From a phage, in the sequence record NC_107013.1: DNA of 41,265 bases, one strand, 5' to 3'. How positions within the stretch are numbered: position 1 is the first letter of the stretch; each line of letters starts with the position of its first letter. Below are positions 128-26,458 of the stretch, one piece after another. Below the pieces are notes generated by a model. It saw only the letters and a list, made by a program, of their open reading frames with translations, had not been told where the DNA came from and did not search any database. A program made the translations under genes and the position numbers.

Positions 128-383
128 GTTCGGCGGTATGCTGGCAATTGGGGGCACATCGCTGTTTAATGTATATCATCCCAGCGTGGACGACGGGCTA
201 TTTGGCCGGGTGCTCTATATCCTGACTGCTATAGTCTGCGCCGCCGGATGTATCCACCTGTTACAGGGCAGCATGTCACCGACGCTGCCTGAGACATTAA
301 TCACATTAGTCGCGCTGCGTCAGATTCGTCAGGCGTGGCTATCGTACGGAGGGCACAAGCGTGTCTCGAAACATTTCAGATAA
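111..383 (+). CDS. Holin-like small membrane protein (2 predicted TM segments, basic C-terminus); possible second holin or antiholin
   Basis: ATG at 111 overlaps the upstream holin stop (ATGAATGA); hydrophobic stretches LFWFGGMLAIGGTSLF and VLYILTAIVCAAGCIHLL; immediately precedes the endolysin. Confidence 0.6.
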   Translation: MNELFWFGGMLAIGGTSLFNVYHPSVDDGLFGRVLYILTAIVCAAGCIHLLQGSMSPTLPETLITLVALRQIRQAWLSYGGHKRVSKHFR

Positions 384-849: not shown

Positions 850-915
850 CACCTAAGACCAATCAGACGATACTTAAATCACCTCCTGTTCCATCCCTCT
901 GCTCTCCAGTTTTAT

Positions 916-945
916 CCCGGCCCTGACCCAGCCGGGATTTTTTTT
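916..945 (+). terminator. Rho-independent terminator after the lysis cassette
   Basis: CCCGGC...GCCGGG hairpin followed by a T8 run. Confidence 0.6.
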
Positions 946-967
946 ATCTGTTTTCTGTAATGGCTAG

Positions 968-996
968 TTGACTATTACCTTAGACCCTATTATATT
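968..996 (+). promoter_or_regulatory. Sigma70-like promoter (TTGACT-N17-TATATT)
   Basis: -35 and -10 hexamers with 17-bp spacer, upstream of the small-ORF cluster. Confidence 0.45.
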
Positions 997-1029
997 TACT
1001 CCATCGACAACGAGAACGGAGTAGAGAAA

Positions 1030-1179
1030 ATGAAAATCACAGACATCGAAGCATTCAAAGACGCACAACTGATGGCACGCATCGCCGTTAGTAACCTGAG
1101 CAACAGCATTCCAGCGGACGCGTTCTGGTTCGCTGCGATGCAGACACTTAAAGCAGCTTACGCAGGAGAGAAGAAATGA
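1030..1179 (+). CDS. Hypothetical small protein (49 aa)
   Basis: GGAG RBS, ATG start, stop overlaps next ATG (ATGA). Confidence 0.4.
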   Translation: MKITDIEAFKDAQLMARIAVSNLSNSIPADAFWFAAMQTLKAAYAGEKK

Positions 1180-1334
1180 GCGAGTCAGAAGGAAATATCA
1201 CGACACCATCCGCCGGGAAGAAAGTCAACCGCACCCCGTTCCCGACACGAGAGGAACTGATGAAACGTAACAGTTTCCCTGGGCCGGACAAGAACAAGTA
1301 TCTTAATCGCATGTGGGGAGAGCGTAAAGAATGA
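1176..1334 (+). CDS. Hypothetical small protein (52 aa)
   Basis: ATGA start/stop coupling on both sides. Confidence 0.4.
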   Translation: MSESEGNITTPSAGKKVNRTPFPTREELMKRNSFPGPDKNKYLNRMWGERKE

Positions 1335-1516
1335 CTGACCGCGAATACGAAAAGATGATGGTAGAGGCTGTTAACGGCGGCGTAGACATCGGACACGTGA
1401 TGCACGTCCTGAATACTAAAATCGCGGTAGCTGAGCAAATGGTTGAGTCGCTATACGAGACACGCCGTGAACTGATTAACCGCTTCAACCTGAACAAAGG
1501 TGACACCAATGCCTAA
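1331..1516 (+). CDS. Hypothetical protein (61 aa)
   Basis: ORF in a tightly coupled operon. Confidence 0.45.
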   Translation: MTDREYEKMMVEAVNGGVDIGHVMHVLNTKIAVAEQMVESLYETRRELINRFNLNKGDTNA

Positions 1517-1757
1517 AATCACAATCGCATCGCTCGAGCGCCGTATTCTGGTGCTTGAGTCGGAGAAACAGACGTTAGGCGGGCAACTGTCAATTAACGG
1601 TGAGTACCAGTTAGCCGCATTTAAGGTTCTTCTCATGTTGTTGAGAGGAGAAGAGGAAAAGATGAACGCCTGCGAGCATGATTACCGCCTGCATTTAGTT
1701 GATGGGGTGCATCGAGCCACATGCTTAAAATGCGGTAAAGCGTATGAAAGCGCCTGA
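1509..1757 (+). CDS. Hypothetical protein with C-terminal Cys/His cluster (possible zinc ribbon)
   Basis: ATG at 1509; C-terminal CEH...H...CLKCG. Confidence 0.45.
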   Translation: MPKITIASLERRILVLESEKQTLGGQLSINGEYQLAAFKVLLMLLRGEEEKMNACEHDYRLHLVDGVHRATCLKCGKAYESA

Positions 1758-1926
1758 ACCCGTAGTTATCGATGGCGTCCTGTGGAAACCCTACTCGGTT
1801 AACCATATCGACGCCGACGGGAAGAAGTTTAGTTTCTACATTTTTGCAATTAGCCGTGAGCACGCCGCTTGTGTGGTCGACGATATACGAGAAACGGCGT
1901 GGCTCGGTGATGAGATAGTGGGGTGA
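1744..1926 (+). CDS. Hypothetical protein (60 aa)
   Basis: ORF overlapping neighbours in the operon. Confidence 0.4.
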   Translation: MKAPEPVVIDGVLWKPYSVNHIDADGKKFSFYIFAISREHAACVVDDIRETAWLGDEIVG

Positions 1927-1928
1927 AT

Positions 1929-2099
1929 ATGTTCAGTGACATCAACGCAGCAATCGAAGAGGCAATCTGGCGTCGTTACAACGGCGAGCAACAACGGCAC
2001 TTTTGCCTGGTGCAACGCGGTAACATGGTTGCCGTAGTGCAGGACCGCGATAACAAATATCCGAATGCGATGTGGACAACGAGGAATTTCTTAGGATGA
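1929..2099 (+). CDS. Hypothetical small protein (56 aa)
   Basis: ATG at 1929; stop overlaps next start (ATGA). Confidence 0.4.
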   Translation: MFSDINAAIEEAIWRRYNGEQQRHFCLVQRGNMVAVVQDRDNKYPNAMWTTRNFLG

Positions 2100-2332
2100 T
2101 TACCAGCATTCCAAACCTGATTAAAGAATACGGCACGATGGCTGAGACATGCCGACAAACCGGCATCAACGAAATGACGATTGCCAAGTACAGCAAAGAC
2201 GTTAACTGCGAGCGCCATGTAATTTATAACAATCGTCTGATGACGCACGTTAAGACAAGCCCGGTGTTATTCACGCGCCGGGGTATTACTAAAACAGAGC
2301 AACGTATTGCTAAAGAGGGGAGTGGGGAATGA
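2096..2332 (+). CDS. Hypothetical protein with HTH-like segment
   Basis: ATG at 2096; segment ETCRQTGINEMTIAKYSK resembles a helix-turn-helix. Confidence 0.4.
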   Translation: MITSIPNLIKEYGTMAETCRQTGINEMTIAKYSKDVNCERHVIYNNRLMTHVKTSPVLFTRRGITKTEQRIAKEGSGE

Positions 2333-2487
2333 TTAGTATTCTGGAGTTCATCGACAACCAAGTTTGGTACGAGCCAGAGTTAAATAAGTATTCAGTTAAT
2401 GGGAAAATATTTCGGCGCAAAGGCCAGGCAGAGCGTTACGCAGCTAAACTATACCGTCAGCTTGTCAAGGATGGTTTCTTCAAATGA
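2329..2487 (+). CDS. Hypothetical small protein (52 aa)
   Basis: ATGA coupling on both sides. Confidence 0.35.
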   Translation: MISILEFIDNQVWYEPELNKYSVNGKIFRRKGQAERYAAKLYRQLVKDGFFK

Positions 2488-2590
2488 GACTACTAATCAT
2501 CCCTAACGCCCGGGCCATTCCCGTAGCTAACGACCATTACGGCGGCGACGGTAAAAGAGCACCACGCCACGGCCTATACAACTGATACAA

Positions 2591-2612
2591 GCCCTCTACC
2601 GAGGGCTTTTCT
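2591..2612 (+). terminator. Rho-independent terminator
   Basis: GCCCTC-TACCG-AGGGC hairpin followed by TTTT. Confidence 0.5.
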
Positions 2613-2706
2613 GTACATCCTGCCCAATCACCTTATATAATCCCTTTAGACGCGTAGGGCGCGTCTGATGCGCTCTGATGGTCAGACGCATATGCAAGGG
2701 GATTCT

Positions 2707-3252
2707 ATGAAGCTGAAACTCAAGCAGCCATCGCCAGAGGTGGTGCAAGCTGCACATGAAGAAGCTGTTAGTGCAAACCGCCGTCGTAAACGACCGCGCG
2801 GTAAACAGAGCCTTTATCAATCATCCAGTAATTCCGCCGCGCTGTGGGACCCGGATTATTGCGACGCGCTAATCGAGTTCTTCGACCGCACGTCGTGGGA
2901 ACTCGTGCCTACGTCTAAGGGTGACGAACGCCCGCTGATTCAGGATAAACCCCCGTCACTGGCCCGCTTCGCCCTGCACATCGGCGTCACTATCCCGATT
3001 ATTAAGCTGTGGTTGCGCGAGATTCCCGCATTTGCGGAAGCCTGGGAGACGGCGCAGGCACTGGAAGAGGCCTATTTCACTGAGACAGGGGCTGCTGGTA
3101 TTTCTGCTACGTTTGCTGCCGCGAAGCTGGGCCTCAGCAAAGAGAAACCGGTTGAGTCCACAGAAGAAACAGCACCGACTGAGATTATTTTTAGTGTTGC
3201 AGAGCCTGTAGGTAAAATTGTAACAACGAATATGGGTGAGGTAGAGGAATGA
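2707..3252 (+). CDS. terS: Terminase small subunit (putative)
   Basis: AAGGGG RBS before ATG 2707; basic N-terminus; directly upstream of and overlapping the large terminase; HTH-like segment. Confidence 0.55.
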   Translation: MKLKLKQPSPEVVQAAHEEAVSANRRRKRPRGKQSLYQSSSNSAALWDPDYCDALIEFFDRTSWELVPTSKGDERPLIQDKPPSLARFALHIGVTIPIIKLWLREIPAFAEAWETAQALEEAYFTETGAAGISATFAAAKLGLSKEKPVESTEETAPTEIIFSVAEPVGKIVTTNMGEVEE

Positions 3253-4499
3253 GTATTCAGCTATCCGCACCGCAGGCACTGTTCCTGAATTGCGATAACA
3301 AATACAAAGCCTATGTCGGCGGCTTCGGCAGCGGAAAGACATTTGTTGGCTGCCTTGACCTGCTTACGTTTATGCTCAAGCATCCAGGTACGCGCCTGGG
3401 TTACTTCGGCCCGACATACCCGGCTATCCGTGACATCTTCTACCCGACATTTGAGGAAGCCGCTAACCTGCTCGGCCTCGATGTGCTGGTTAAATCTGGC
3501 GACAAAGAAGTCGTGGTTACTCGCGGTAAGACGGTGCTCGGTACAGTTATCTGCCGTTCTATGGATAACCCAGGCTCGATAGTCGGCTTCAAAATCGCTG
3601 CTGCGGTCGTGGATGAGCTTGATGTATTGAGCCGTGAGAAAGCTGAGCTGGCGTGGAACAAAATAGTCGCCCGTATGCGTCTGGTTATCCCCGGCGTAAC
3701 TAACCACATCTCTGTCACCACGACACCGGAAGGGTTCAAGTTCGTCTACGCCAAGTTCAAAGAGAACCCGACGCCGAGTTACTCGATGGTGCAGGCTTCT
3801 ACACACGAGAACGCGCGATTCCTGCCGCCTGACTACATTAGCTCACTGACCGAGACTTACCCCGCGCAACTGATTAACGCGTACCTGAACGGTGAGTTCG
3901 TTAACCTGACATCCGGCAGCGTGTATTATGCGTATGACCGTCGCAAGCACCGCAGCAAAGAGACAATTCAACCGGGCGATACACTGTACATCGGGCAGGA
4001 CTTCAACGTTACGAAGAACGCCAGCGCCGTGTATGTGCAACGTAAAGACGGCTGGCACGCGGTGGCAGAACTGAAAGGTCTGTTTGATACGCCGGACACC
4101 GTGCGTGTAATTACTGAGAAGTGGAAGTCGCAGGGCCACCGCATAGTCGTTTACCCGGACGCCAGCGGCAAGAACCGCAAGACCAACTCGGCGTCAATCT
4201 CAGATATTGCGTTACTCCAGCAGGCCGGTTTCGATGTTCGCGCTAAATCCGCCAACCCTCCGGTTAAAGACCGTGTTTTAGCCGTGAATACCGCACTGGA
4301 AAAAGGTAAGCTGTGGGTTAATGACCACTTATGCCCTGAGATAGCGAAGACGCTGGAGCAGCAGGCATACGATGATAACGGAGAGCCAGCTAAAGACGGC
4401 ATCATTGACCATATGGCGGATGCTCTCGGCTATCCTGTAGTTTACGAGATGCCGGTGGTTAAACCAGTAATCAACATCCCGGTGACTTTCGCACTTTAA
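3249..4499 (+). CDS. terL: Terminase large subunit
   Basis: Walker A-like VGGFGSGKT near N-terminus; 416 aa; followed by portal. Confidence 0.8.
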   Translation: MSIQLSAPQALFLNCDNKYKAYVGGFGSGKTFVGCLDLLTFMLKHPGTRLGYFGPTYPAIRDIFYPTFEEAANLLGLDVLVKSGDKEVVVTRGKTVLGTVICRSMDNPGSIVGFKIAAAVVDELDVLSREKAELAWNKIVARMRLVIPGVTNHISVTTTPEGFKFVYAKFKENPTPSYSMVQASTHENARFLPPDYISSLTETYPAQLINAYLNGEFVNLTSGSVYYAYDRRKHRSKETIQPGDTLYIGQDFNVTKNASAVYVQRKDGWHAVAELKGLFDTPDTVRVITEKWKSQGHRIVVYPDASGKNRKTNSASISDIALLQQAGFDVRAKSANPPVKDRVLAVNTALEKGKLWVNDHLCPEIAKTLEQQAYDDNGEPAKDGIIDHMADALGYPVVYEMPVVKPVINIPVTFAL

Positions 4500-4510
4500 G
4501 AGGACAACAA

Positions 4511-6004
4511 ATGGTTTCCGCAAACATTAACGCAGGGCAAGGGCAGAACGTTAAAACCCGCCACCGCCAGTACGAAGAGTATTTCCCTAAGTGGCAGAAG
4601 GTGCGACATGCGCTTTCTGGCGACCTGACATCGTATCTACGTGACGTCAGTAAGAACGAGCCGGACCCGGTTTACGGTCGCCAGCGTCAGGCTGAATACG
4701 AAGCGGGGGCAATTTGCTACAACTTCACCAAGCGAACGCTTTCAGGCATGGTCGGCAGCGTAATGCGCAAAGACCCCGAGATGATTATTCCGTCTCAGAT
4801 GGAATACCTGACCACTAACTGTGACGGGTCGGGCGTTGGCCTGTGGCAGCACGCACAGGATACTCTGTATGAGATTGATGCTGTTGGTCGCGGTGGCTTG
4901 CTGGTTGACGCCCCCGCGGTAGAAGTAGCTACCATGGCAGAGCAAAACGAGGGTTTACTAAACCCAACAATCGCTTTCTACACCGCAGAGAATATCATCA
5001 ACTGGCGTCTCCAGCGCGTCGGGTCTGTTAATCGTGTGGTTATGGTTGTATTGCGTGAGGAATACGAGTACACCGATGGCGCGGATGAGTTCAGCCCCAA
5101 CTACGGCGAGCAATACCGCGTCCTTGATATTTTCGAAGGCCAGTATCGCCAGCGTCTGTACCGCTTTAACCAGAAAGGTGCACTGATGGAAGGTGGCTAT
5201 ATCGAAATATTCCCGAAACTCGGTAATATTCCGGTCGGGGTGATTCCGTTCACGTTCATCGGCGCGGGAAATAACGACTCAACCCCTGACGATGCACCTT
5301 TGCTGCCGTTGGCTGAACTTAATATTGGGCACTTCCGCAACAGCGCGGACAATGAGGAGTCCAGCTTCGTCGTAGGCCAGCCTACTCTGTTCATCGCCCC
5401 CGGTGAGAACATGAGCATGGGACAATGGAAAGAAGCCAACCCTCACGGAGTGCGTATGGGGTCACGTTCTGGCCATAACATCGGTTACGGCGGCAATGCG
5501 TTTCTGGTCCAGGCCGGTGAGAACAACCTAGCCAAGCAGAACATGTTGGATAAAGAGAACCAGGCAATCCAGATTGGTGCACAGCTTATTACCCCGACGC
5601 AGCAAATCACCGCGGAATCGGCACGCCTGCAACGCGGCGCTGATACGTCCGTTATGGCAACAATCGCACGTAACGTAAGCATGGCGTATACCGATGCGTT
5701 GCGCTGGGTCGCGGGTATGCTTGGGATTAGCGACAGCACTGAAATTGAGTTCAAACTGAACATGGAGTTCTTCCTGCAACCAATGACCGCTCAGGACCGC
5801 GCGCAGTGGATGGCGGATATTAACGCGGGCCTGTTACCGGCTACCGCTTACTATGCTGCGTTGCGTAAGGCGGGGGTAACTGACTGGACAGACGAGGACA
5901 TTCAGAACGCTATCGAGGATGCGCCTCTGCCATTAGGTGCTGTTGCTCAGGTGGCTGGGGAGATTCCGCAGTCGGCGCAGCAAAAAGACCCCACCCAGCA
6001 GTAA
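4511..6004 (+). CDS. Portal protein
   Basis: 497-aa ORF directly after the large terminase with strong RBS. Confidence 0.75.
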   Translation: MVSANINAGQGQNVKTRHRQYEEYFPKWQKVRHALSGDLTSYLRDVSKNEPDPVYGRQRQAEYEAGAICYNFTKRTLSGMVGSVMRKDPEMIIPSQMEYLTTNCDGSGVGLWQHAQDTLYEIDAVGRGGLLVDAPAVEVATMAEQNEGLLNPTIAFYTAENIINWRLQRVGSVNRVVMVVLREEYEYTDGADEFSPNYGEQYRVLDIFEGQYRQRLYRFNQKGALMEGGYIEIFPKLGNIPVGVIPFTFIGAGNNDSTPDDAPLLPLAELNIGHFRNSADNEESSFVVGQPTLFIAPGENMSMGQWKEANPHGVRMGSRSGHNIGYGGNAFLVQAGENNLAKQNMLDKENQAIQIGAQLITPTQQITAESARLQRGADTSVMATIARNVSMAYTDALRWVAGMLGISDSTEIEFKLNMEFFLQPMTAQDRAQWMADINAGLLPATAYYAALRKAGVTDWTDEDIQNAIEDAPLPLGAVAQVAGEIPQSAQQKDPTQQ

Positions 6005-6014
6005 GTTCACATAT

Positions 6015-6036
6015 AGCCCCGAAAGGGGCTTTCTTA
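6015..6036 (+). terminator. Internal hairpin terminator/attenuator between portal and head morphogenesis genes
   Basis: AGCCCC-GAAA-GGGGCT then TTCTT; same hairpin as at 7584-7604. Confidence 0.45.
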
Positions 6037-6073
6037 TAGTATGCTATTAACTTTAGCGCCACAGGGTTTATCT

Positions 6074-7117
6074 ATGAGCTTACTTACATCACTAATCAGC
6101 CACCAAATATGGCTGCAACGCACCGCATCCGGTGAGGTGAAAGACCTCGCGCCGTTCATTAAGGAGATGCGGGACGAAATCAAACGGCAGGTGCTGCTAT
6201 TCGGCGACGACGGTCGCAGCACTGCGCGACTGAATAAACTGTTACGTGACCTTGAAGAAGTACTGACAGGACTTACTGGTGACTGGCAAACAAAGCTGGC
6301 AGAAGACCTCAAGGAACTGGCGGTGTATGAAGCTGAGTGGAACGTAAAGACCCTGACCGCCAACGTAGATGCGGAATTTGTTACGCCCACCGCCGAACAG
6401 GTGTGGGCCGCTGCTGAGTTTCAGCCATTATCATTGAGTGGCAAGCCAGTTGATTTCACTAAACTGATGTCAGGTTGGGGTGAAACGGAAGTAGCACGTC
6501 TTGTAACCGGCGTTAAGATGGGCTTTGTACAAGGTCAAACAACACGGCAGATTGTTAAGAATGTAGTAGGCGCCGGTGGGCTGGCTGACATCTCTGAGCG
6601 TAACGCCGCTACCGTCATCCGCACCGCGCTGTCTCACGTGTCCAACGAAGCCCGTAACGAGACGTACCGCCAGAACGACGACATCATAGAGAAGTACGAG
6701 TGGGTGTCAACGCTTGACAGCCGCACCAGTACGATTTGCAGGGTCAGAGACGGGATGACGTGGGAAATTGGTAAGGGGCCGATGCCCCCTGCCCATCCGA
6801 ACTGCCGGTCGTGCACGGCTCCGGTAATCAGTTCCGAGTTCGACTTCCTCGATAAAGGCGCAAAACGCGCGGCTAAAGGCGCGGAAGGTGGCACTCAGGT
6901 AAGCGTAGACACCACTTACTACGAGTTCCTTAAACAACAACCGGCGTGGTTTCAGGACCAGGCGCTCGGCCCGGTGCGAGGTAAGATTTTCCGTAACAGC
7001 GGTATATCGCCGGAAGAGTTTCGCGTAATATCTGTAGATGGTTTCGGGAATCCGCTCACGCTTAAGCAGATGGCGGAACTCGATAAACGTGTTGCTGATT
7101 ATCTGAAAGGGGATTAA
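6074..7117 (+). CDS. Head morphogenesis / minor capsid protein (SPP1 gp7 / Mu F-like); start ambiguous (6041 or 6074)
   Basis: Position after portal and size. Confidence 0.6.
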   Translation: MSLLTSLISHQIWLQRTASGEVKDLAPFIKEMRDEIKRQVLLFGDDGRSTARLNKLLRDLEEVLTGLTGDWQTKLAEDLKELAVYEAEWNVKTLTANVDAEFVTPTAEQVWAAAEFQPLSLSGKPVDFTKLMSGWGETEVARLVTGVKMGFVQGQTTRQIVKNVVGAGGLADISERNAATVIRTALSHVSNEARNETYRQNDDIIEKYEWVSTLDSRTSTICRVRDGMTWEIGKGPMPPAHPNCRSCTAPVISSEFDFLDKGAKRAAKGAEGGTQVSVDTTYYEFLKQQPAWFQDQALGPVRGKIFRNSGISPEEFRVISVDGFGNPLTLKQMAELDKRVADYLKGD

Positions 7118-7578
7118 TGATGGGCTTTTTCAAAGTAACTGATGTACCGTCACGTCGCGTAGTCCAGTACGCCCGCGTGTCTGGCTCTGGTGAGAACGTG
7201 GTGTTTATTGATGATGAAAGTGTACTCGGTACACCCGAAGACGATATGCCGTTTGCAGATAAAACCGGTATTGCGTTACCCGCGGCGGGCATGCTTTATG
7301 AAATTCCGTATCTGGCGGATGCAGGTGACGTGTATTTCTCGGTGCAACCGAAAGACACCGAGCTGGTCGACGGTAGCGCCACCATCACCGTCGAAGTTAA
7401 GGCGGGTAAAGCGCCGTGTGTACTGACCTGGTACAAAGACGGCAAGGAAGTGGTAAACGCCCCAGAAGAGGCTTTGTCTCTGACGGTTAATGCTGTCGGT
7501 GAATACTTCGTTAAAGTCACCGATGCCGATGGGGTAGAGGCCGTAAGTAAAGCAGCGAAGGTTACTAAGCCAGAATAA
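7117..7578 (+). CDS. Virion-associated protein with Ig-like C-terminal domain (putative)
   Basis: TAATG coupling to upstream gene; beta-rich C-terminal segment. Confidence 0.4.
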   Translation: MMGFFKVTDVPSRRVVQYARVSGSGENVVFIDDESVLGTPEDDMPFADKTGIALPAAGMLYEIPYLADAGDVYFSVQPKDTELVDGSATITVEVKAGKAPCVLTWYKDGKEVVNAPEEALSLTVNAVGEYFVKVTDADGVEAVSKAAKVTKPE

Positions 7579-7583
7579 ACTGA

Positions 7584-7604
7584 AGCCCCGAAAGGGGCTT
7601 TTTA
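7584..7604 (+). terminator. Rho-independent terminator
   Basis: AGCCCC-GAAA-GGGGCT hairpin followed by TTTTT. Confidence 0.65.
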
Positions 7605-7667
7605 GTGCCTGTGATTATTCCAGTTATTCCACTCAATTGTAAATGTTGGAATAAACTATTCGAATAG

Positions 7668-7696
7668 TTGACTTTTCACCAAAAATGTGCTAAGCT
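7668..7696 (+). promoter_or_regulatory. Sigma70-like promoter TTGACT-N17-TAAGCT (TG-extended -10), copy 1; overlapped upstream by the 16-bp palindrome AACTATTCGAATAGTT
   Basis: Same -35, -10 and spacer length as the promoter at 38053-38081. Confidence 0.55.
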
Positions 7697-7699
7697 CCA

Positions 7700-7810
7700 C
7701 CTGAGCTTGTGAAGTATGAACAAGCGACCGCGGCGCGGGCAGGTAACGGAGCGGGACGTAAGTCCTGAGTGTAGTTACGCTGACGCGTTCGGAAGGGCCA
7801 TACTCTATTG
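7700..7810 (+). ncRNA. Conserved promoter-proximal element, copy 1 (candidate small RNA or cis-acting leader)
   Basis: 5' 34 nt identical and 3' ~33 nt nearly identical to 38085-38197; conserved GCUUGU/ACAAGC hairpin; no conserved reading frame. Confidence 0.4.
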
Positions 7811-7875
7811 CTTGTGTAAAAAGTAACTGGTTTACTGAGATTACGCCGTTTCTATGTTTAAATGATAAGGACTAG

Positions 7876-7905
7876 CGCCCCGCTTTAAGGCGGGGCTTTA
7901 CTTAT
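7876..7905 (+). terminator. Intrinsic terminator/attenuator downstream of element copy 1
   Basis: GCCCCGC-TTTAAG-GCGGGGC hairpin then TTTACTTAT. Confidence 0.45.
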
Positions 7906-7920
7906 CGAGAAAGGGGAAAC

Positions 7921-8307
7921 ATGAATCTTAAAGCAACTGTCGTAGCGGGAGCATGTTTCATCATCCTGGCTTACGCACACGGCATCTACCAGTATCGCAG
8001 CGGCTGGAACGGAGGCCGGGCGAATCTCGTTTCTCAGCAACAGCAGAAAGCACAGGCTGAGTTAGCTAAGAAAACACAACGGCAGCAGCAGGATGAATCG
8101 AAGGCCGCCGCCGCTGATAACGAAGGCAAGACGAAATCAGAGGTAATCACCCGTGAAGTCGTTAAGTACATTAAAACGCCTGGCCGCAGCGTGTGCACTT
8201 TTGACCCTGAGCGCGTGCAGCTCAAGTCCCGCGCCGTCGCAAACGCCAATTCCATCCCCGGATACGACGATGATGCAGCCGCCGTGCAAACTGGCACTGC
8301 CAAGTAA
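7921..8307 (+). CDS. i-spanin (Rz-like): N-terminal TM, Gln/Ala/Lys-rich predicted helix, periplasmic Cys
   Basis: GAAAGGGG RBS; TM VVAGACFIILAYAHGIY; Rz-like architecture; contains an overlapped lipoprotein gene. Confidence 0.6.
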   Translation: MNLKATVVAGACFIILAYAHGIYQYRSGWNGGRANLVSQQQQKAQAELAKKTQRQQQDESKAAAADNEGKTKSEVITREVVKYIKTPGRSVCTFDPERVQLKSRAVANANSIPGYDDDAAAVQTGTAK

Positions 8308-8416
8308 CGACGCGGACGAGGATTTAGCTATTGACGTCCAGAACGCAGAATGTGTACGGCAACTGAGACTTAAAGTGTTCATGTTGCAGGATTACGTGAG
8401 GAATATTCTGGAATAG
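8153..8416 (+). CDS. o-spanin (Rz1-like) outer-membrane lipoprotein, overlapped with the i-spanin in the +1 frame
   Basis: GTG start with AGAGG RBS; signal peptide with lipobox LTLSAC; proline-rich mature part. Confidence 0.55.
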   Translation: MKSLSTLKRLAAACALLTLSACSSSPAPSQTPIPSPDTTMMQPPCKLALPSNDADEDLAIDVQNAECVRQLRLKVFMLQDYVRNILE

Positions 8417-8427
8417 TTGCCTTGTAT

Positions 8428-8473
8428 GTTGGAATAATTTATTCTTGACATGTAAATCCGGGTGGCCCGGATT
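8428..8473 (+). promoter_or_regulatory. Regulatory region: palindrome GAATAATTTATTC, -35-like TTGACA, then perfect inverted repeat AATCCGGG-TGG-CCCGGATT
   Basis: Inverted repeats read directly; no good -10 at the expected spacing. Confidence 0.3.
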
Positions 8474-8495
8474 CCAACGTCCAGGGGACATACTG

Positions 8496-9122
8496 ATGAG
8501 CGAAGAAGTGAAAGACGAAACTATCGAACAACAAGAGACTAAGACCACGTTTACCAAAGAAGAAGTTGACGCGCTGGTATCCGGTCTTAAAGCTAACAAC
8601 GAGAAGCTCTTGTCTGAAAAGAAAGCTGCTGCCGCTGCTGCGAAAGAAGCCGCAGATGCGAAGCTGAAAGCCGAACAGGAACGCGCAAAACAGAACGGCG
8701 AACTTGAGGCATTCGAGAAAACGTTGCGCAGTCAGTATGAGCCAGTACTCGCCGAGAAAGACGGTAAGATTAGCAAAATGGCTGAGCGTATCCTCGGCGC
8801 AGAACGTAAATCAGTTATCAGCCAGTTGTCTGGCATGTTGATTGATGAGAGCGCAGCGGATATTATCGCTATGATGGTCAAGACCGAATTTGACGGCGAT
8901 GACGTTGTGACCAAGTTCACAGGTGCAGATGGTAATGTCATCACCACCGACGCAGAGCAATTTAAAAAGTATCTGCGTGAGCACAAAGCATTTTCGCATC
9001 TGATTAAAGCAGATGCAGCAACCGGCGGCGGGGCTTCCGGTAACAAAAATTCTACTGGCGGGGCCGGTGGTGCGGACGTAATCCAGCAAAAACTTAACGC
9101 CAAATACGGCAAACGAGGATAA
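8496..9122 (+). CDS. Scaffolding protein (putative)
   Basis: Acidic, Ala/Lys/Glu-rich ORF directly upstream of the major capsid gene. Confidence 0.55.
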   Translation: MSEEVKDETIEQQETKTTFTKEEVDALVSGLKANNEKLLSEKKAAAAAAKEAADAKLKAEQERAKQNGELEAFEKTLRSQYEPVLAEKDGKISKMAERILGAERKSVISQLSGMLIDESAADIIAMMVKTEFDGDDVVTKFTGADGNVITTDAEQFKKYLREHKAFSHLIKADAATGGGASGNKNSTGGAGGADVIQQKLNAKYGKRG

Positions 9123-9128
9123 CAGAAT

Positions 9129-10097
9129 ATGTCTCTGTCAGATATGAAGGTTTATAACGACGATATCGTCGGTACCACTATCGAACTGCTTGGTCAGAAA
9201 ACTGACCAGTTTAACGCAGCCTCCGGTGGCGCAATTGTACTGTCTACCGCTTCATGGCGCGGTGACTTCTCCCGTGAGTCTTTCTTTAACCAGATTGCCT
9301 CCGCTAAACGCCGCGTTGACCGTTACGCCGCTATCGCGTCTCAGGCAGCTACCGCGCTGACTCAGGGCGAGCGTGTAGGCGTTAAAGTCGCTGGCGGCTT
9401 CGGACCGGTACTGTTCGAGCCTGCGCAAATGACCTGGCTGAACGAAGACCCGGCGAGCGCGATTCGTGCTATCTCCGAAGGGTTCTCTGACGCACTGTTA
9501 GCTGACCAGCTTAACACCGCTGTTGGTGCCGCCGTTGCCGCGGTATCAGGTCAGACTGCACTGGTTAACGATGTATCCGCGACCGCTGGCTTGTCCCTGA
9601 ACGTGCTGAACAACAGCCACGCTAAATTCGGCGACCAGTCTCAGTTGTTGGTCACTGACATCATGACCGGTGCTGCTTATCACACGCTGGTAGATAAAGC
9701 GCTGACTAACGCGAACCAGCTGTTCGTTGCCGGTAACGTTATGGTTGTCGATGTTCTCGGCAAGCGTTACGTAATCTCTGACATTCCTGCGCTGTACGAG
9801 GCCGGTACTCCGAACAAGACTAAGGTTCTGTCCGTAGTTGCGAACGGCATCATCGTTGATAATGCTTCTGACATTATCAGCAACATTGACACCAGCAACG
9901 GTAACACCCGCATCCAGACCACCTGGCAGGCGGACTACAGCTTCGGCCTGAAACTGAAAGGCTACAGCTGGGACGTTACCAACGGCGGTAAATCTCCGCT
10001 GGACGCAGAACTGTTCACCGCGACTAACTGGGACAAAGCTGTTGCCGAGAACAAGCACACCCTCGGTACTCTGGCAATCGCCGACGCAGACCTGTAA
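9129..10097 (+). CDS. Major capsid protein
   Basis: 322-aa ORF after scaffold, followed by a strong terminator. Confidence 0.7.
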   Translation: MSLSDMKVYNDDIVGTTIELLGQKTDQFNAASGGAIVLSTASWRGDFSRESFFNQIASAKRRVDRYAAIASQAATALTQGERVGVKVAGGFGPVLFEPAQMTWLNEDPASAIRAISEGFSDALLADQLNTAVGAAVAAVSGQTALVNDVSATAGLSLNVLNNSHAKFGDQSQLLVTDIMTGAAYHTLVDKALTNANQLFVAGNVMVVDVLGKRYVISDIPALYEAGTPNKTKVLSVVANGIIVDNASDIISNIDTSNGNTRIQTTWQADYSFGLKLKGYSWDVTNGGKSPLDAELFTATNWDKAVAENKHTLGTLAIADADL

Positions 10098-10116
10098 CAC
10101 GGTTAGTAGTAAAAAC

Positions 10117-10139
10117 AAAGGGGCTTCGGCCCCTTTTTA
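10117..10139 (+). terminator. Strong rho-independent terminator after the capsid gene
   Basis: GGGGC-TTCG-GCCCC hairpin plus TTTTT. Confidence 0.7.
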
Positions 10140-10155
10140 CTAGGAGAAATTAAAG

Positions 10156-10323
10156 TGGAAATTAAATACGTACCAATGCCAATTACCATCGAGCAGAAGC
10201 GCGAGTATAACCGTCAGGGGTTCCGTGTGGTAGATGCTCGTTTCGCACCAGAAGGCACCGTGGTAGAATCGGCTAAAGAAGAGACACCACGCCGCCAGCG
10301 CCGGGCGAAATCAGAGGAATAAT
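10156..10323 (+). CDS. Hypothetical small basic protein
   Basis: AGGAG RBS then GTG; ORF below the 60-aa track cut-off. Confidence 0.3.
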
Positions 10324-10325
10324 TT

Positions 10326-10838
10326 ATGCCGCTAATCGTGGAAGATGGGTCGATAGTACCTGATGCCGACAGTTACGTTAGTCTGGCCGACGCCCGCGCG
10401 TTAGCGGCTAATTACGGTCTTGTGTTGCCGGCAGACGATACCGCCGCAGAGGTGGCCCTGCGCAACGGTGCTACTTATGTTGGGCTTGCAGAACCTCAGA
10501 TGTGCGGGCGTCGCGTATCCGCTGAACAGTCTCTGGCGTACCCACGTACAGGAACAACACTAAACGGCTTCACCGTAGCGGATAATGTTATCCCGTCGCA
10601 GTTAATCCGGGCACAAGTAATCGCTGCGGTTACGTATGGTGCGGGTACCGATGTTCGGGCTAACTCAGATGGGCGTTCCGTGCAGACTGAGCGTGTTGAG
10701 GGTGCTGTGACAGTGACATACTTCAACAACGGCAACAGTGGCGCCACAACCGCTATTACCGCTGCGGACGACGCATTACGCCCGTTACTGTGTGGTGGTC
10801 TTAACAATGGCTTCTCGTTTAACGTGTACCGGGGTTAA
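10326..10838 (+). CDS. Head-tail connector / head completion protein (putative)
   Basis: GAGGA RBS; position immediately after the capsid gene. Confidence 0.45.
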   Translation: MPLIVEDGSIVPDADSYVSLADARALAANYGLVLPADDTAAEVALRNGATYVGLAEPQMCGRRVSAEQSLAYPRTGTTLNGFTVADNVIPSQLIRAQVIAAVTYGAGTDVRANSDGRSVQTERVEGAVTVTYFNNGNSGATTAITAADDALRPLLCGGLNNGFSFNVYRG

Positions 10839-10840
10839 AA

Positions 10841-11455
10841 ATGGCGAAGACTAAAACAGAGATGTTCACCCTTATCGGGACAAATCTCGCCGATAATACA
10901 ACTGGCGCTATAACCCCTGAGTTGTTGCGCGAGGTAAATACCCAGTTAGCGGACTCCATGCTTTACGCTGCATCCGGTGTTAAAGAGGTAGAAGTTCTCC
11001 GTGCCACGTCAACCGTGGCGCAAGCGCCTACCGCAGTAGATACAGCGTTACAGTTAACTTTCGGGGCTGCGCAGGGAGGCGCGTCTAACCCGGTAATGAT
11101 TAATGCCGCAGGGCTTGTTACATTCAACACCGCGGGTAACTACGCCGTTCGCATCAAGTTACAGGCGAGGCGTACTGGCGCTAGTGGGACATCAATCCTG
11201 CTATCACGTATTTTAGTAAACGGTGCTCAGTACGGCTCTCCCGCAGCAACTAAGCTGGTAAGCGCCGACATAACAATTCCTATTGAGTCCCGCGTTGTTA
11301 TTAGCCCAACCGCAGGCCAGACGTTTGCCGTTCATATTATGCGGGATAGCTCCGGGGCTAACTTTGGTGGCGTATATCCGCAAGTTGCTACCGTAACCGC
11401 ATGGGGTACAGCACCATCCGCATTACTGGTTATTTCGAGACTGGAGGCCGCTTGA
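10841..11455 (+). CDS. Virion structural protein (unknown role)
   Basis: Coupled to the upstream gene in the structural operon. Confidence 0.4.
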   Translation: MAKTKTEMFTLIGTNLADNTTGAITPELLREVNTQLADSMLYAASGVKEVEVLRATSTVAQAPTAVDTALQLTFGAAQGGASNPVMINAAGLVTFNTAGNYAVRIKLQARRTGASGTSILLSRILVNGAQYGSPAATKLVSADITIPIESRVVISPTAGQTFAVHIMRDSSGANFGGVYPQVATVTAWGTAPSALLVISRLEAA

Positions 11456-11549
11456 TGAATAAGTTCACATGTGGTGTAGTTTTTGGTTTTCTTACCGCGG
11501 TAGTCTTGCACAGTTACGGTGTTCTTTTGACGCTGCAAGAGGTGCTAAA

Positions 11550-11909
11550 ATGAGCACCGCTTTCAGTAAACGTATGCAAGGCGTGGGTACGCGCCTGCTA
11601 ACCAAATTCGGTAGCACGGTATCTCTGATTCGCGCTGGTTCAAAAGTATGGGATGAAGTTCTCGGTGAGTACGTCTGGTCTGCGGATGAAGTGTTGCCGT
11701 TGAAGGCCGTTCCGGTTCCGGTAAACGCGGGACTGGTAAACGGTACGACGATTCAGGCTGGCGACATGATTGTTAAAGCCGATTACAGCGTCGTTCCGAA
11801 GATGGAAGACAAGGTGCAATTCGGCGGCGAGCAATGGTCCATCGTAGCTATTGAGAAGAAGATGGTTAACGATGACGTCGTGGCGTACTTTATTCAGGTG
11901 AGAAAATGA
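11550..11909 (+). CDS. Head-tail joining protein (putative)
   Basis: AAGAGG RBS before ATG 11550. Confidence 0.4.
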   Translation: MSTAFSKRMQGVGTRLLTKFGSTVSLIRAGSKVWDEVLGEYVWSADEVLPLKAVPVPVNAGLVNGTTIQAGDMIVKADYSVVPKMEDKVQFGGEQWSIVAIEKKMVNDDVVAYFIQVRK

Positions 11910-12301
11910 GTTTCGCGCTCGATGTCTCTAAGTTCGTGGAAAAGGCGAAGAAGAACCCTGAGAAGGTGATGCGTCGGGTGTCTATCAAGCTGTTTTCCGC
12001 TATTATAAAGGCGAGTCCGGTAGACACGGGCCGCTTTCGTATGAACTGGATGGCATCTGGCGGTACTCCTGCTTCCGGGATTACGGACGCTACGGATAAA
12101 TCAGGAAACACAGCAACCGGAAACGCTACGAGTTTCGTGCTGAAAGCCGCTGACTGGCATGAGTTCACGCTGACAAATAATCTGCCGTATGCGCAACGGC
12201 TGGAGTATGGTTGGTCGCAACAGGCGCCAGCCGGGGTTGTCAGGACTAATGTGTCTCGCTTCCAGCAACTCATTAACGAAGAAGCCAACAAGGTGAAATG
12301 A
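11906..12301 (+). CDS. HK97 gp10-like head-tail joining / tail completion protein
   Basis: Motif PVDTGRFRMNW resembles the HK97 gp10 family signature; ATGA coupling. Confidence 0.45.
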   Translation: MSFALDVSKFVEKAKKNPEKVMRRVSIKLFSAIIKASPVDTGRFRMNWMASGGTPASGITDATDKSGNTATGNATSFVLKAADWHEFTLTNNLPYAQRLEYGWSQQAPAGVVRTNVSRFQQLINEEANKVK

Positions 12302-12714
12302 TGGGCTACTTTGAGGACTTAACAAAAGCGTTCGATGTTCCGCTGGTAGCCTTCGGAACCGCCAACGGCATCAAGGTCGCGCTTGAAAACATCGACGCGC
12401 CGACGTCAACCGATACGCCATATCTGGCAAGTTACATGTTACTGGCGGATACCGAGCAAGCAGATTTGTTCTTCACGGAACAACGCGCGGGTGTTTATCA
12501 GGTCGACATTAACTACGCATCGGTGAAAGGTAGCGCGCCAATCAATAAAATGGCAGACTTACTTAACACGGCATTCAAAGCAGGTAAGTCATTTTCTCGT
12601 AACGACATCTGCGCCGAGGTTCAATCGGTTAGCCTGGGGCCGCTGATTGTAGAAAACGGATGGGCCAAACGACCATTGTCAATTAACTTTATTGCATTCA
12701 CCAAGAGGCTGTGA
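12298..12714 (+). CDS. Tail terminator / tail completion protein (putative)
   Basis: Position before the major tail gene. Confidence 0.4.
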   Translation: MMGYFEDLTKAFDVPLVAFGTANGIKVALENIDAPTSTDTPYLASYMLLADTEQADLFFTEQRAGVYQVDINYASVKGSAPINKMADLLNTAFKAGKSFSRNDICAEVQSVSLGPLIVENGWAKRPLSINFIAFTKRL

Positions 12715-12716
12715 AT

Positions 12717-13883
12717 ATGGCTACAACTCCTTTTAAGGGCGCGAATACTGCGCAATTCTATGTGGCAGAAACTACCCCCGGCGTAACACCGACTAACCCG
12801 GTCTGGTCGCCATTGCGTAACACAGGTGGCGTTCCTGCCATTACCCGCGACACGCTGACCTCCAACGAACTGGACGGCAGCCGTGAAACTACGTCAATCC
12901 GCACCGGTAACAAGCAGGTTAGCGGAGAATACGCTATTGAGCTTAGCTCGAAAAGCCAGGACGACTGGCTGGCGGGTGCTTTAGGCTCTACATGGCAATC
13001 CGGTAGTTCTCTGACCGGGCTATCAATTACCGTCGCGCCTGCAGGCAAGACCTTTACCCGTGCCGAAGGTAGCTTTATTTCTGACGGCGTTGAAGTGGGC
13101 GACCTGATTGCGTTTACCGACTTAACCGGTGACAACGCAAAACCGTTTATCGTAACTGCAGTAGAGGCGCTGGTAGTGACCGGGGCGGGTATCCAGCATA
13201 CCCTGACCACAGAGACAGTAACTACCGCCGCTAAGACAGGGGATAAACTGGAAACGGGAAGCCAGTGCAAGACGTTCTCTATTCTCACCTGGTACAAAGG
13301 CCAGTGCGGCGGGACTGACGCGTACACACTAACCAAAGGCGTGGAAGTTTCTGGTTTTACCATCGAACAGGCTGTTAACGCTATGGTAACTGGCAGCTTC
13401 CCGTTCATCGGTCGCAGTCAGGAGATTCTCACCACGCAGCCGTCTGGTTCTGATTTCTCCTCTGTTACGTTTGGTGACGAGCCATTCTCCTCGGTCGATG
13501 TTTCTGTGTTCGACGGTTCTACGCCGTTGCGTTGCGACAGCCTGACCATCACCAACGACAACAGCGCGTCCGCACAGTTCGAACTCGGCAACACTAACGT
13601 AGCGTTTGTGGAGCGTAGCCGAGCAGCTAACACCTTCTCCATCTCCGGTAAGCTGTACGACATGGCGATGATTCAGAAGTTTATCAACGAGCAGCAGGTG
13701 GAGATTAACTCTATTCTGGCTGGGGTAAACGGGGCTATGTCTTTCAGTTTGAAACGTGCAGAACTTACGGCGGTTACACCTGAGATTGGAGGACCTGAGT
13801 CAATCACTCAGTCTATTGAAGGTCAGGCTACTGGCAACCAGTACCAGTCGTCTATTGTTATTCAGCGTATCACATACGCATAA
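12717..13883 (+). CDS. Major tail protein (putative)
   Basis: AGAGG RBS before ATG 12717; Thr/Ser/Gly-rich 389-aa ORF at the expected position. Confidence 0.55.
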   Translation: MATTPFKGANTAQFYVAETTPGVTPTNPVWSPLRNTGGVPAITRDTLTSNELDGSRETTSIRTGNKQVSGEYAIELSSKSQDDWLAGALGSTWQSGSSLTGLSITVAPAGKTFTRAEGSFISDGVEVGDLIAFTDLTGDNAKPFIVTAVEALVVTGAGIQHTLTTETVTTAAKTGDKLETGSQCKTFSILTWYKGQCGGTDAYTLTKGVEVSGFTIEQAVNAMVTGSFPFIGRSQEILTTQPSGSDFSSVTFGDEPFSSVDVSVFDGSTPLRCDSLTITNDNSASAQFELGNTNVAFVERSRAANTFSISGKLYDMAMIQKFINEQQVEINSILAGVNGAMSFSLKRAELTAVTPEIGGPESITQSIEGQATGNQYQSSIVIQRITYA

Positions 13884-13887
13884 AACT

Positions 13888-13912
13888 AAGGCCCCGTTTG
13901 GGGCCTTTTTCT
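13888..13912. terminator. Bidirectional terminator at a convergent junction
   Basis: GGCCCC-GTTT-GGGGCC hairpin flanked by A-run upstream and T-run downstream; near-identical to 26459-26484. Confidence 0.65.
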
Positions 13913-14466
13913 TACAAACCTAATCTTAAAGCAATGCCTATAGCGTTCGATTTAACGTAACCCGGTATGATGTAGGTGTCATAATCTTTTACACCATTAA
14001 TATCGTACAGGTAACCGCGGCTGTCCCCTTCAAACGTATGGCCGTCTCTGTGCAAGCGGACGATTCTCACATCATGCCCCGCGGCAACGATAGGGGCTAC
14101 TTCGCTGGCGAACCCGCCATCAGACACCACAAAAACTTCGTCGCCGTCGGGCAAGTTTCCGGCAAGATACTTACCGAAATAATCATCACCGAATACCGGT
14201 TTAATGAATTGCTCGGAAATGGCAATCATGAACTGACGCCGAGACAACCCGTTAAGGAAACCCTCTGGCTTTTCTTTCCGCGCCCGGTCGTCGTAGCCGT
14301 CGAGAAACTCGCGGTAAGCATCCTGGCCTAACGCAGCCATAGCAATATTGAACATCGGATTCTTGAAACTGGCGACACCCTTCGCAAAGCCCATTTCTAC
14401 CAGCGCCCTAGCAAGTGTGTCTTTCCCGCAGCCCGCAGGACCATTAAGAATAATTACCTTAGCCAT
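13912..14466 (-). CDS. P-loop kinase, dNMP-kinase-like (T4 gp1-type GKDT motif)
   Basis: Walker A NGPAGCGKDT; TAATG coupling to upstream gene. Confidence 0.55.
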   Translation of the reverse strand: MAKVIILNGPAGCGKDTLARALVEMGFAKGVASFKNPMFNIAMAALGQDAYREFLDGYDDRARKEKPEGFLNGLSRRQFMIAISEQFIKPVFGDDYFGKYLAGNLPDGDEVFVVSDGGFASEVAPIVAAGHDVRIVRLHRDGHTFEGDSRGYLYDINGVKDYDTYIIPGYVKSNAIGIALRLGL

Positions 14467-14951
14467 TATTTATCACTCCCATGTGGTTTTAAGTGTGTAG
14501 AGTTCCCGTTACAGTCGTATTCAGTAACTGCGTGAGTGGTTATGCCGAGTTCGCGGAAATGCTTTATTACCGCTGGAGAGTCGTCGAATGCACACAAGAT
14601 TCTCTCCGGCCCAATAGCACGCAACACCTCTTCTTTAATTACGATGTCTTTTCTGTTGTCGTGTTTGCTGCGCATGATTAACTGATAAAATTCGACGCGG
14701 TGGCGCTGCAACCACATTCTGGTTTCTTTTTCCGCGTCATCACTACGGCCTGTTAAGATAATAACGGCATAGCGACGATTAAGGGCGTTACACAGTTCGA
14801 TGTTATCTTTAATGGGTGCATCGTCTTTGCACGCCATGTTAAATGGTTTCCACGCCCAGGTTTCGCCGTAGTTATCTTTCGGCAGCAGGTGTAAACGATG
14901 AGTACCATCTGCCAATGTCCCGTCTAAATCGAAAATCACAATATCTTTCAT
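14466..14951 (-). CDS. HAD-superfamily phosphatase
   Basis: N-terminal FDLDGTL motif; further HAD-like Asp motifs. Confidence 0.65.
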   Translation of the reverse strand: MKDIVIFDLDGTLADGTHRLHLLPKDNYGETWAWKPFNMACKDDAPIKDNIELCNALNRRYAVIILTGRSDDAEKETRMWLQRHRVEFYQLIMRSKHDNRKDIVIKEEVLRAIGPERILCAFDDSPAVIKHFRELGITTHAVTEYDCNGNSTHLKPHGSDK

Positions 14952-16078: not shown

Positions 16079-16115
16079 GCTTATTCCTCGTGTTTAGGAT
16101 TTGTCCTATACTAGC

Positions 16116-16307: not shown

Positions 16308-16337
16308 TTTAAACCCCTTCATTGTTGGTGTAAGTGA

Positions 16338-26455: not shown

Positions 26456-26458
26456 AAC

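Follow-up and report, generated by a model that had tools for sequence, protein, structure and literature searches.

RNA-only reprogramming of bacterial RNA polymerase has so far been known mainly from the put RNAs of phage HK022 and their close relatives. The HK022 sites putL and putR are formed by two adjacent stem-loops 1-2 nt apart and lie directly behind the promoters of two operons (PMC9378689). Here we describe a structured leader RNA element occupying a similar place in the phage genome NC_107013.1. The window, that is, the whole stretch of 41,265 bp analyzed here, bears an exact direct terminal repeat of 127 bp (1-127 = 41139-41265) at its two ends, indicating that it comprises the entire phage genome including the physical ends. 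It is the genome of a complete Kagunavirus (Guernseyvirinae) phage and is 97-100% identical, in the regions tested, to Escherichia phage vB_EcoS_fKuEco01 and other Kagunavirus records. A cassette of promoter plus leader occurs twice in it, at 7668-7812 and 38053-38199. The RNA family is real, supported by covariation and coupled to an extended -10 promoter, and it is recorded neither in Rfam nor in the literature searched.

A promoter-coupled leader RNA in two copies

Comparison of the two copies showed that the 34-nt block 7700-7733 is identical to 38085-38118, as an earlier sequence-only reading of this DNA had stated. The divergent center and the second conserved block described there are correct as well, with 89% identity between 7773-7810 and 38160-38197. 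A covariance model of the element, R1, matches the 41-kb window at these two sites and yields no third copy, and the E-values of 4e-35 and 5e-25 exclude chance. The copies have in common everything from the -35 hexamer through the tail, which ends at 7812 and 38199, respectively, and the sequences further downstream are unrelated. Therefore, the element appears to be self-contained and to need no particular downstream partner, which argues against a riboswitch or attenuator.

The promoter proposed for copy 1, TTGACT-N17-TAAGCT, is present at 7668-7696 as claimed, and the same promoter is found at 38053-38081. In both copies TGn lies immediately 5' of the -10 hexamer, which makes it an extended -10 promoter, a point missing from the first reading. 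A consensus promoter scan missed the copy-1 site because TAAGCT matches TATAAT in only three of six positions. Across genera the architecture is kept as the -35 hexamer, N14, TGn and then TAAGCT, TACGCT or TAACCT, with a spacer of varying sequence. We regard such a constant architecture over a changing spacer as good support for a genuine promoter whose start lies near G7703. We infer a sigma-70 promoter of the extended -10 class, at which transcription is predicted to start at about 7703 (G7703 or A7704) and about 38088; the conserved promoter thus supports the view that the element begins at about +1. A second -10-like hexamer overlaps the start, TGAGCT (7702-7707) following TAAGCT here and TACGCT following TACGCT in phage Jersey. 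Being absent from the Cornellvirus/phiEap-2 type, this repeat was rejected as a conserved feature and is taken as a mere lead.

Upstream of the copy-1 -35 hexamer, a direct repeat of TTATTCC is accompanied by the inverted GGAATAA (Table 1). The same arrangement is present in Jersey, phiEap-2 and SP-031 and is absent 5' of copy 2. This is probably where a late-gene regulator binds, as a site peculiar to the copy-1 (late) promoter. A TTATTCC-related sequence, ATGTTGGAATAATTTATTC, followed by TTGACA, is also seen at 8426-8450, just 5' of the scaffold gene.

The RNA is composed of a first stem-loop (SL1), a GA linker, a second stem-loop (SL2) and a conserved purine-rich tail, and the two copies fold independently into this same architecture despite their differing centers. 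Both hairpins pointed out by the sequence-only reading were located, GCUUGU-N9-ACAAGC at 7705-7725 being SL1 and the tetraloop hairpin GGAC-GUAA-GUCC at 7754-7765 belonging to the apical part of SL2. The lower helices of SL2 are CCG:CGG, then, beyond a C bulge, GGCGCG:CGCGUU, CAG:CUG and GUAAC:GUUAC, and its upper part contains an internal loop GGA/GUA, a 2-bp GC:GU step, a GA bulge and the apical GGGAC-GUAA-GUCCU. The tail is the best conserved stretch across the Kaguna-, Jersey- and Cornellvirus/phiEap-2-type elements. The minimum-free-energy fold of copy 2 yields SL1 and SL2 directly. In the corresponding fold of copy 1, a pseudoknot between the SL1 loop (AGUAUG) and the tail (CAUACU) is perfect and dominant; it was rejected as a conserved feature, because any of the four bases (C/G/A/U) may stand at the partner position and the 3-nt loop of Jersey leaves no way to form it.

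The fold was tested on 36 distinct variants collected from IMG/VR contigs and GenBank phages. On a sequence-only MAFFT alignment the structure reached 89.1% pairing, compared with 26-40% when the partners were slid by 1-3 columns, and none of 500 column shuffles attained the observed pairing or covariation score. R1 was built from this alignment, and its 72 matches (41 distinct sequences) were re-aligned, resulting in 93.6% pairing with both sides changed in 13 of 30 pairs; as this alignment is fitted to R1, these figures lean towards the model. The clearest covarying pair is 7734/7787, the N in GGNGCG with the N in CGCNUU (C-G 17, U-A 17, A-U 3). Its double changes are found on different center types, for example in copy 2 of the window versus variant L067, and at least three independent events were counted. 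The apical hairpin is swapped wholesale between variants, as GGGAC-GUAA-GUCCU, GGUGC-GUUA-GCACU, GUGCC-AUUA-GGCAC, CACGU-CUCG-ACGUG or GGGCGU-CUCA-ACGCCC. The internal loop (5' G-N-A, 3' G-U-A), the A preceding the 2-bp step and the CGGAAGGGCC tail remain unchanged. Most divergent variants give the same SL2 in single-sequence folds; the full structure rests on pairing defined by us, on pair counts and on such folds. P2a/P2b can face competition from a local hairpin, CCGC-GGN-GCGG, which reads CGCC-GCAA-GGCG in the Cornellvirus/phiEap-2 type.

Two G-U pairs in P2b are invariant, and two more positions are G-U in most sequences. Read from the opposite strand, the invariant pairs would turn into A-C mismatches, which identifies the RNA as the plus-strand transcript. 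The sequence of SL1 is fully replaced between genera with the hairpin kept, from GCUUGU..ACAAGC here to ACGCU-UUC-AGCGU in Jersey and UUCGU-UCU-ACGAA in the Cornellvirus/phiEap-2 type. Within Kagunavirus, a U.G is accepted in SL1, and the stem is then lengthened by one G-C pair, which favors an RNA over a DNA palindrome. Folding of both copies and a search for compensatory pairs, the check suggested beforehand, yielded a common fold with covariation. The conservation acts on RNA structure, as supported by these compensatory changes.

The open reading frame (ORF) starting at the shared ATG (7716) has 36 codons in copy 1 and 19 codons in copy 2, with the conserved flanks in different frames, exactly as had been reported. 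Across the variants the ORF from the same ATG spans 9, 17, 19, 22, 34, 36 or more codons, and three lineages, namely the phiEc3-type copy 2, variant L040 and all Jersey-type elements, have no such ATG. The covariation and the unstable ORF together bear out the earlier judgment that the conservation is not protein-coding. Nevertheless, coding sequences (CDS) annotated as 'hypothetical protein' cover the promoter and RNA element, namely CPT_Shashou_007 (357-467 of the Shashou sequence) and Jersey gp08 (Jersey 7265-7456); as the ORF is not conserved, both calls are probably spurious. We therefore give next to no credence to a 36-aa protein made from ATG 7716 (CPT_Shashou_007; Jersey gp08 overlaps the region). 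It has the CDS annotation in some records in its favor, and against it stand the variable ORF length, the loss of the ATG in three lineages, the frame shift between copies and the lack of a Shine-Dalgarno sequence.

Table 1. Positions of the leader RNA, its parts and the surrounding signals in the window.
Feature	Position	Strand	Remarks
Leader RNA element, copy 1	7700-7812	+	full covariance-model match, 137.7 bits, E 4e-35
SL1 (copy 1)	7705-7725	+	GCUUGU / loop GAAGUAUGA / ACAAGC; starts about 2-3 nt past the predicted transcription start
SL2 (copy 1)	7728-7792	+	long irregular hairpin; from folds of both copies, pair counts and single-sequence folds of variants
3' tail (copy 1)	7793-7812	+	AAGGGCCAUACUCUAUUGCU; predicted unpaired; with the preceding CGG forms the motif CGGAAGGGCC
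Leader RNA element, copy 2	38085-38199	+	101.1 bits, E 5e-25; SL1 38090-38110, SL2 38113-38179, tail 38180-38199
Copy-1 promoter	7668-7696	+	-35 TTGACT 7668-7673; 17-bp spacer ending TGC 7688-7690; -10 TAAGCT 7691-7696
Copy-2 promoter	38053-38081	+	-35 TTGACT 38053-38058; 17-bp spacer ending TGG 38073-38075; -10 TAAGCT 38076-38081
TTATTCC repeats	7615-7654	.	direct repeat 7615-7621 and 7624-7630, inverted GGAATAA 7648-7654; 5' of the copy-1 -35
Terminator between portal and head-morphogenesis genes	6015-6030	+	within the copy-2-driven operon; 36 nt intergenic, no room for a following promoter
Intrinsic terminator closing the upstream operon	7583-7601	+	AAGCCCCGAAAGGGGCUU followed by UUUAG, -15.5 kcal/mol; just 5' of the copy-1 promoter
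GC hairpin with UUUACUUAU	7877-7905	+	16 nt 5' of the Rz start codon; outside the repeated cassette
Terminator after the major capsid gene	10117-10136	+	within the copy-1-driven operon; -13.6 kcal/mol, tail UUUUUAC
Bidirectional terminator after the major tail protein gene	13888-13907	+	terminator scan
Hairpin UGGUGCC-UUC-GGCACCA	38268-38284	+	3' of copy 2; followed by CGUUCGUUUCGUUUCG / CGUUCGUUUCG, a poor U tract

Distribution of the element and origin of copy 2

The element is present in roughly 480 database records of three Guernseyvirinae genera (Kaguna-, Jersey- and Cornellvirus types) and of related unclassified phages. Kagunavirus and allied phages (Escherichia, Salmonella, Raoultella and Shigella) account for 180 records in which the copy-1 region is 95-100% identical, and in each of them it lies between the Hoc-like gene and Rz. 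A diverged version occupies the same place in phage Jersey and about 270 Jerseyvirus-type records. A third, more diverged type is found in 13 records (Cornellvirus SP-031, GRNsp27, SenTO17, phiEap-2, 'pink' and Hafnia phage TS33); R1 gives it no more than 16-17 bits, and the case for its homology is based mainly on synteny, promoter and tail. Serratia phage Smarc3 and the Vibrio breoganii phages have the capsid module in common with this genome, but the intergenic region or the element is absent from them. A blastn search of 5,426 complete Escherichia coli genomes gave no match to the element, on which ground a host or prophage origin was rejected. Rfam 15 yielded no match at the gathering threshold in the whole window, and at E <= 10 in 7560-7960 the best sub-threshold matches were unrelated families of 12-17 bits; no tRNA or tmRNA identity was detected. 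No description of the element was found in the literature on promoters, antitermination and transcriptomes of Kagunavirus, Jerseyvirus and Guernseyvirinae.

Two places are detectable by BLAST in 42 of the 180 Kaguna-type records. Counted with R1, the present genome has two copies, and K1G (the type species) and Jersey have one each. The early-right leader of K1G possesses a different promoter (TTGACA-N16-TAAAAT) and other hairpins, and its sequence converges with that of the copy-2-type leader again at about GUCUAUU, where the element tail ends. The lack of copy 2 in K1G, with the junction at the tail end, indicates that promoter and leader alone were copied from the late to the early-right position in a subset of Kagunavirus. 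Copy 2 is thus a cassette that has been transplanted.

The element is absent from the early-right leaders of Jersey (38860-39090) and K1G (36684-36920), each of which has promoter-proximal hairpins of its own. In Jersey these are GUAAC-UUCAA-GUUAC and a further, long hairpin; the K1G leader has CUUAAGAAU..AUUCUUAAG as well as GCCCCGC..GCGGGGC. Downstream motifs of both leaders, CUAAGUUUC and ACUGA..UGCCG, recur in the leader 3' of copy 2, and the two may represent a second, older leader type.

Proposed function and its rivals

The first rightward operon starts at about 38.05 kb and comprises small early genes, holin and endolysin, terminase, portal, head-morphogenesis and the Hoc-like gene, ending at the terminator 7583-7601. 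The second, from about 7.67 kb, carries Rz/Rz1, scaffold, capsid, adaptor and tail genes. The terminator 7583-7601 is annotated as such in phage Shashou and has a Jersey counterpart at the same place. As it lies directly 5' of the copy-1 promoter, only polymerases started at this promoter, hence making the RNA, would enter the structural operon. Of the internal terminators, those at 10117 and 13888 are syntenic in Jersey, and the scan listed no promoter-like site after the ones at 6015 and 10117, which lie 5' of essential genes.

Some side observations concern these signals. The operon-end terminators 7574-7603, 13880-13909 and 26452-26481 form a sequence family (ATAAAACTAAGGCCCC..GGGGCCTTTT), and an identical 18-mer is found in two terminators (6015-6032 = 7584-7601). 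The strongest plus-strand terminator within the scanned 1-20000 is that at 17027-17050 (9 pairs, -20.6 kcal/mol, UUUUUAU); its position is within the reading frame that separates the tail assembly chaperone gene from the tape-measure gene, and all distal tail genes lie 3' of it. A further rightward promoter, the third, may lie at 16345-16475 (TGATAGAAT, extended -10) and be followed by a leader of its own. This leader contains a long hairpin UGCGCC...GGCGCA (16386-16432) and, just before the tail chaperone gene, a lambda-boxA-like CCUCUUAAC (16452-16460). It was rejected as a further copy of the element, as its structure differs and the element model gives no match.

We tentatively favor the reading that the element is a put-like, self-contained, cis-acting antiterminator RNA for operons with internal terminators, by which termination would be suppressed. 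Antitermination is favored because the operons headed by the element hold good terminators, most of them 5' of genes needing expression, and because a portable promoter-coupled RNA with conserved non-helical features resembles what is expected of a put-like RNA. Similar to put, the element lies in cis right after operon promoters, is present in two copies here, has bulges and internal loops, is self-contained and heads operons containing terminators. SL1 and SL2, separated by GA and beginning at about +3, agree with put in layout only. The likeness to HK022 put raised by the sequence-only reading thus holds for two adjacent stem-loops behind two operon promoters, and supplies the leading hypothesis, but it does not extend to membership in the put family. 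Compared with put, the element is longer (about 110 nt versus about 70 nt), has a short SL1 and carries the conserved single-stranded CGGAAGGGCC tail, which put lacks. In addition, its hosts are virulent siphophages, whereas those of put are lambdoid temperate phages. That it constitutes a new class of self-acting antiterminator RNA, unrelated to put in sequence, portable with its own extended -10 promoter and needing no phage protein, is possible but doubtful.

In the proposed mechanism, transcription would start at about 7703 or 38088, and the first 110 nt or so would fold into SL1, SL2 and the single-stranded purine-rich tail. The nascent RNA would act in cis on the polymerase that made it, as does HK022 put RNA, whose action involves the beta' zinc-binding domain of the polymerase and needs no phage protein, and the elongation complex would thereby acquire resistance to pausing as well as termination. 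Polymerases from both promoters would read through the terminators at 6015, 10117 and 13888, and perhaps the hairpin at 7877, and read-through from upstream would be stopped at 7583-7601. Binding of the RNA to the elongation complex, suppression of termination and independence from a phage protein are what we infer. The copying of promoter and RNA as a unit, with nothing shared downstream, fits an element that needs no specific downstream partner. In favor of this reading we also count that the small early proteins and the Jersey and K1G annotations contain no recognizable N- or Q-type antiterminator. Among other cis-acting antiterminator RNAs, Bacillus EAR, Tn916 canT and conAn2 (Gram-positive conjugative elements) are structured leaders of long operons with internal terminators, as is the case here. 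However, their hosts are unrelated, and the element has no Rfam match to EAR or any family. The RfaH/ops (JUMPstart) sequence GGCGGTAGnnTG has no plus-strand site in either leader, only minus-strand matches with 2 mismatches inside the elements (7721-7732 and 38106-38117). An ops-like match spotted by eye in Jersey (GCGGTCGCGTG, 10/12) was dropped, as it is not conserved in other Jersey-type variants.

Several points weigh against put-like antitermination. A put model, R2, was built from six putL-type sequences (HK022, phiEt88, UPF_BP1, CobraSix, S9-5 and HK639), with the tested consensus GAACGGCGCG..UAAACCAUGCGUCGG..GGCGGGYUCAGGRNGARCGGCAAU in two stems. In the controls it scored putL at 99 bits, HK639 at 93 bits and the unseeded putR at 36 bits (E 3e-7), and it gave no match at E <= 10 in the window, nor at the element in Jersey, SP-031 and phiEap-2. 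Since R2 recovers the unseeded putR yet nothing at the element, membership in the put family was rejected; conversely, R1 found no match in the HK022 early region. The early-right operons of K1G and Jersey run without the element, and the element is also lacking from the tail operon that begins at about 16.4 kb, despite the strong terminator inside it (17027-17050). Terminators after capsid genes and elsewhere in phage structural operons are commonly leaky, and antitermination is not required for them. In Jersey and in the Cornellvirus/phiEap-2 type, a start 7 nt past the -10 hexamer would truncate SL1, and SL1 is also a DNA palindrome which could serve as an operator. RNAalifold recovered the structure in part, namely P2a/P2b only from the MAFFT alignment, and P2c, the apical stem and a competing local hairpin from the fitted alignment. 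Finally, the 20 early proteins in PHROGs of unknown function leave room for a protein partner.

Such a partner is the substance of a nut-like reading, in which a phage or host protein would bind SL1, the internal loop of SL2 (G-N-A/G-U-A) or the CGGAAGGGCC tail, and would either load onto the polymerase in the manner of N or co-regulate both operons. Similar to lambda nutL/nutR, an RNA signal with a hairpin and a conserved single-stranded motif stands twice, in the leaders of two operons whose expression needs terminator read-through. The internal loop, the A-containing bulge and the tail stay constant while the helices covary, which is typical of protein-contact sites, and of the 20 small early proteins all but one belong to PHROGs of unknown function, the exception being an HTH/excisionase-like protein whose gene lies beside copy 2 in divergent orientation. 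However, boxA (CGCUCUUA or GCUCUUUAACAA-like) has no plus-strand match with <= 3 mismatches in 7700-7920 or 38085-38410, and its genome-wide count is at chance level. The SL1 loop of 9 or 3 nt does not correspond to the 15-nt boxB hairpin, and the element is three times longer than nut and abuts the promoter. No N- or Q-type antiterminator, including an arginine-rich N-like protein, was recognized among the 20 small early proteins or the RefSeq annotations of Jersey and K1G, Q families being diverse, and the element spans genera with differing early gene sets. We regard this reading as unlikely. The same word applies to a role in mRNA processing or stability, where the 5'-terminal SL1 would block 5'-end-dependent decay, or RNase III would cleave SL2 (about 24 bp) and set the 5' end and half-life. 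SL1 does lie within 2-3 nt of the predicted start, and SL2 resembles phage RNase III hairpins (T7 R-sites, for example of the R1.1 type, and the lambda N leader), which are long interrupted duplexes with an asymmetric internal loop in mRNA leaders; a self-contained function would also suit the modular duplication. Yet a simple hairpin suffices for a stabilizer, which leaves the near-invariant basal stem, internal loop and tail across genera unaccounted for. RNase III sites are usually conserved in shape and not in sequence, unlike the basal stem and tail of the element, and the data contain no sign of a processing site.

A further rival, resembling lambda PR' with its qut site, 6S RNA and tR' terminator, turns on the hairpin between copy 1 and Rz. 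Here a constitutive RNA of about 200 nt would end at 7896-7905, and a Q-like DNA-binding protein would engage a paused polymerase. The GC hairpin with a U-rich tail, which had been noted before the Rz start at 7921, is real (7877-7896, tail UUUACUUAUC, -17.2 kcal/mol); it passes the terminator scan, lies about 175-200 nt downstream and would give such an RNA. We consider it a weak or possible terminator. The promoter-proximal conserved region placed before lysis and structural genes is likewise PR'-like, and so is the -10-like hexamer at the start site of the Kaguna and Jersey types, which could cause a sigma-dependent pause. However, the -10-like repeat is lacking in the Cornellvirus/phiEap-2 type, and the hairpin, although retained by relatives at a constant distance of about 24 nt from the Rz start, lacks its U tract there. 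Its tail is UUAGCGUAU in Jersey, where the terminator scan did not flag it, and UGUUACG in SP-031 and phiEap-2. As the U tract is missing at copy 2 and in the relatives, a discrete, conserved RNA of about 200 nt is doubtful. In addition, Q systems act through a DNA site and need no covarying RNA hairpin at +26 to +90, and no Q homologue was recognized. With nothing downstream common to the two copies either, the earlier picture of a discrete RNA gated at 7876-7905 is weak, and a PR'-type mechanism seems quite improbable. Still less probable is a ligand-sensing riboswitch or attenuator controlling the downstream hairpin. In its favor are the structure and conservation of the 5' leader, including its internal loops, and the terminator-like hairpin downstream of copy 1. 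On the other hand, the sequences and hairpins 3' of the two copies are unrelated, the cassette boundary seen in K1G falls at the tail, a 64-nt AU-rich spacer precedes 7877 with no shared alternative pairing, and no Rfam riboswitch was matched even at E <= 10.

Genome context and significance

Kagunavirus phages are virulent siphophages, and the annotations of relatives contain no RNA polymerase gene. The leftward replication genes of this genome have three canonical promoters (TTGACA-N17/18-TATAGT). On the minus strand, repeats at 29080-29110, 32634-32664 and 34771-34795 form a family of 25-31 nt which holds three strong leftward promoters (TTGACA/G-N17/18-TATAGT); they precede the replication gene blocks, and none of the three carries the leader element. 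In the early gene region, an exact 23-nt unit, TCCGTATAACTGACCGCAGGCTT, stands in tandem at 38809-38855 with a 1-nt gap between the units. Only 18 phage records contain the major capsid gene (9129-10097) at an identity of 95% or more, which suggests that most Kagunaviruses have a different capsid module (mosaicism). The corresponding identities with Enterobacter phage phiEap-2, Serratia phage Smarc3 and the Vibrio breoganii phages are 93%, 78% and about 62%, respectively. Short-repeat arrays are found 3' of the helicase-primase gene, with CGGACAA/CGGACAC at 5540-5720 of phiEap-2 and TGTGCGGAA/TTCCGCACA at 6780-6850 of Smarc3; they may be origin or operator iterons.

Whatever its mechanism, the RNA family heads the lysis and structural operon in roughly 480 records, many of them of candidate phages for therapy or biocontrol. 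It is probably mis-annotated as a hypothetical protein in several of these records and is a candidate for Rfam. If the antitermination reading is true, promoter plus 110-nt leader would make a compact part for terminator-proof expression in E. coli. The RNA polymerase of E. coli or Salmonella would then be made terminator-resistant by an RNA of virulent Guernseyvirinae siphophages, and a second, unrelated polymerase-modifying RNA would mean that this strategy has arisen more than once.

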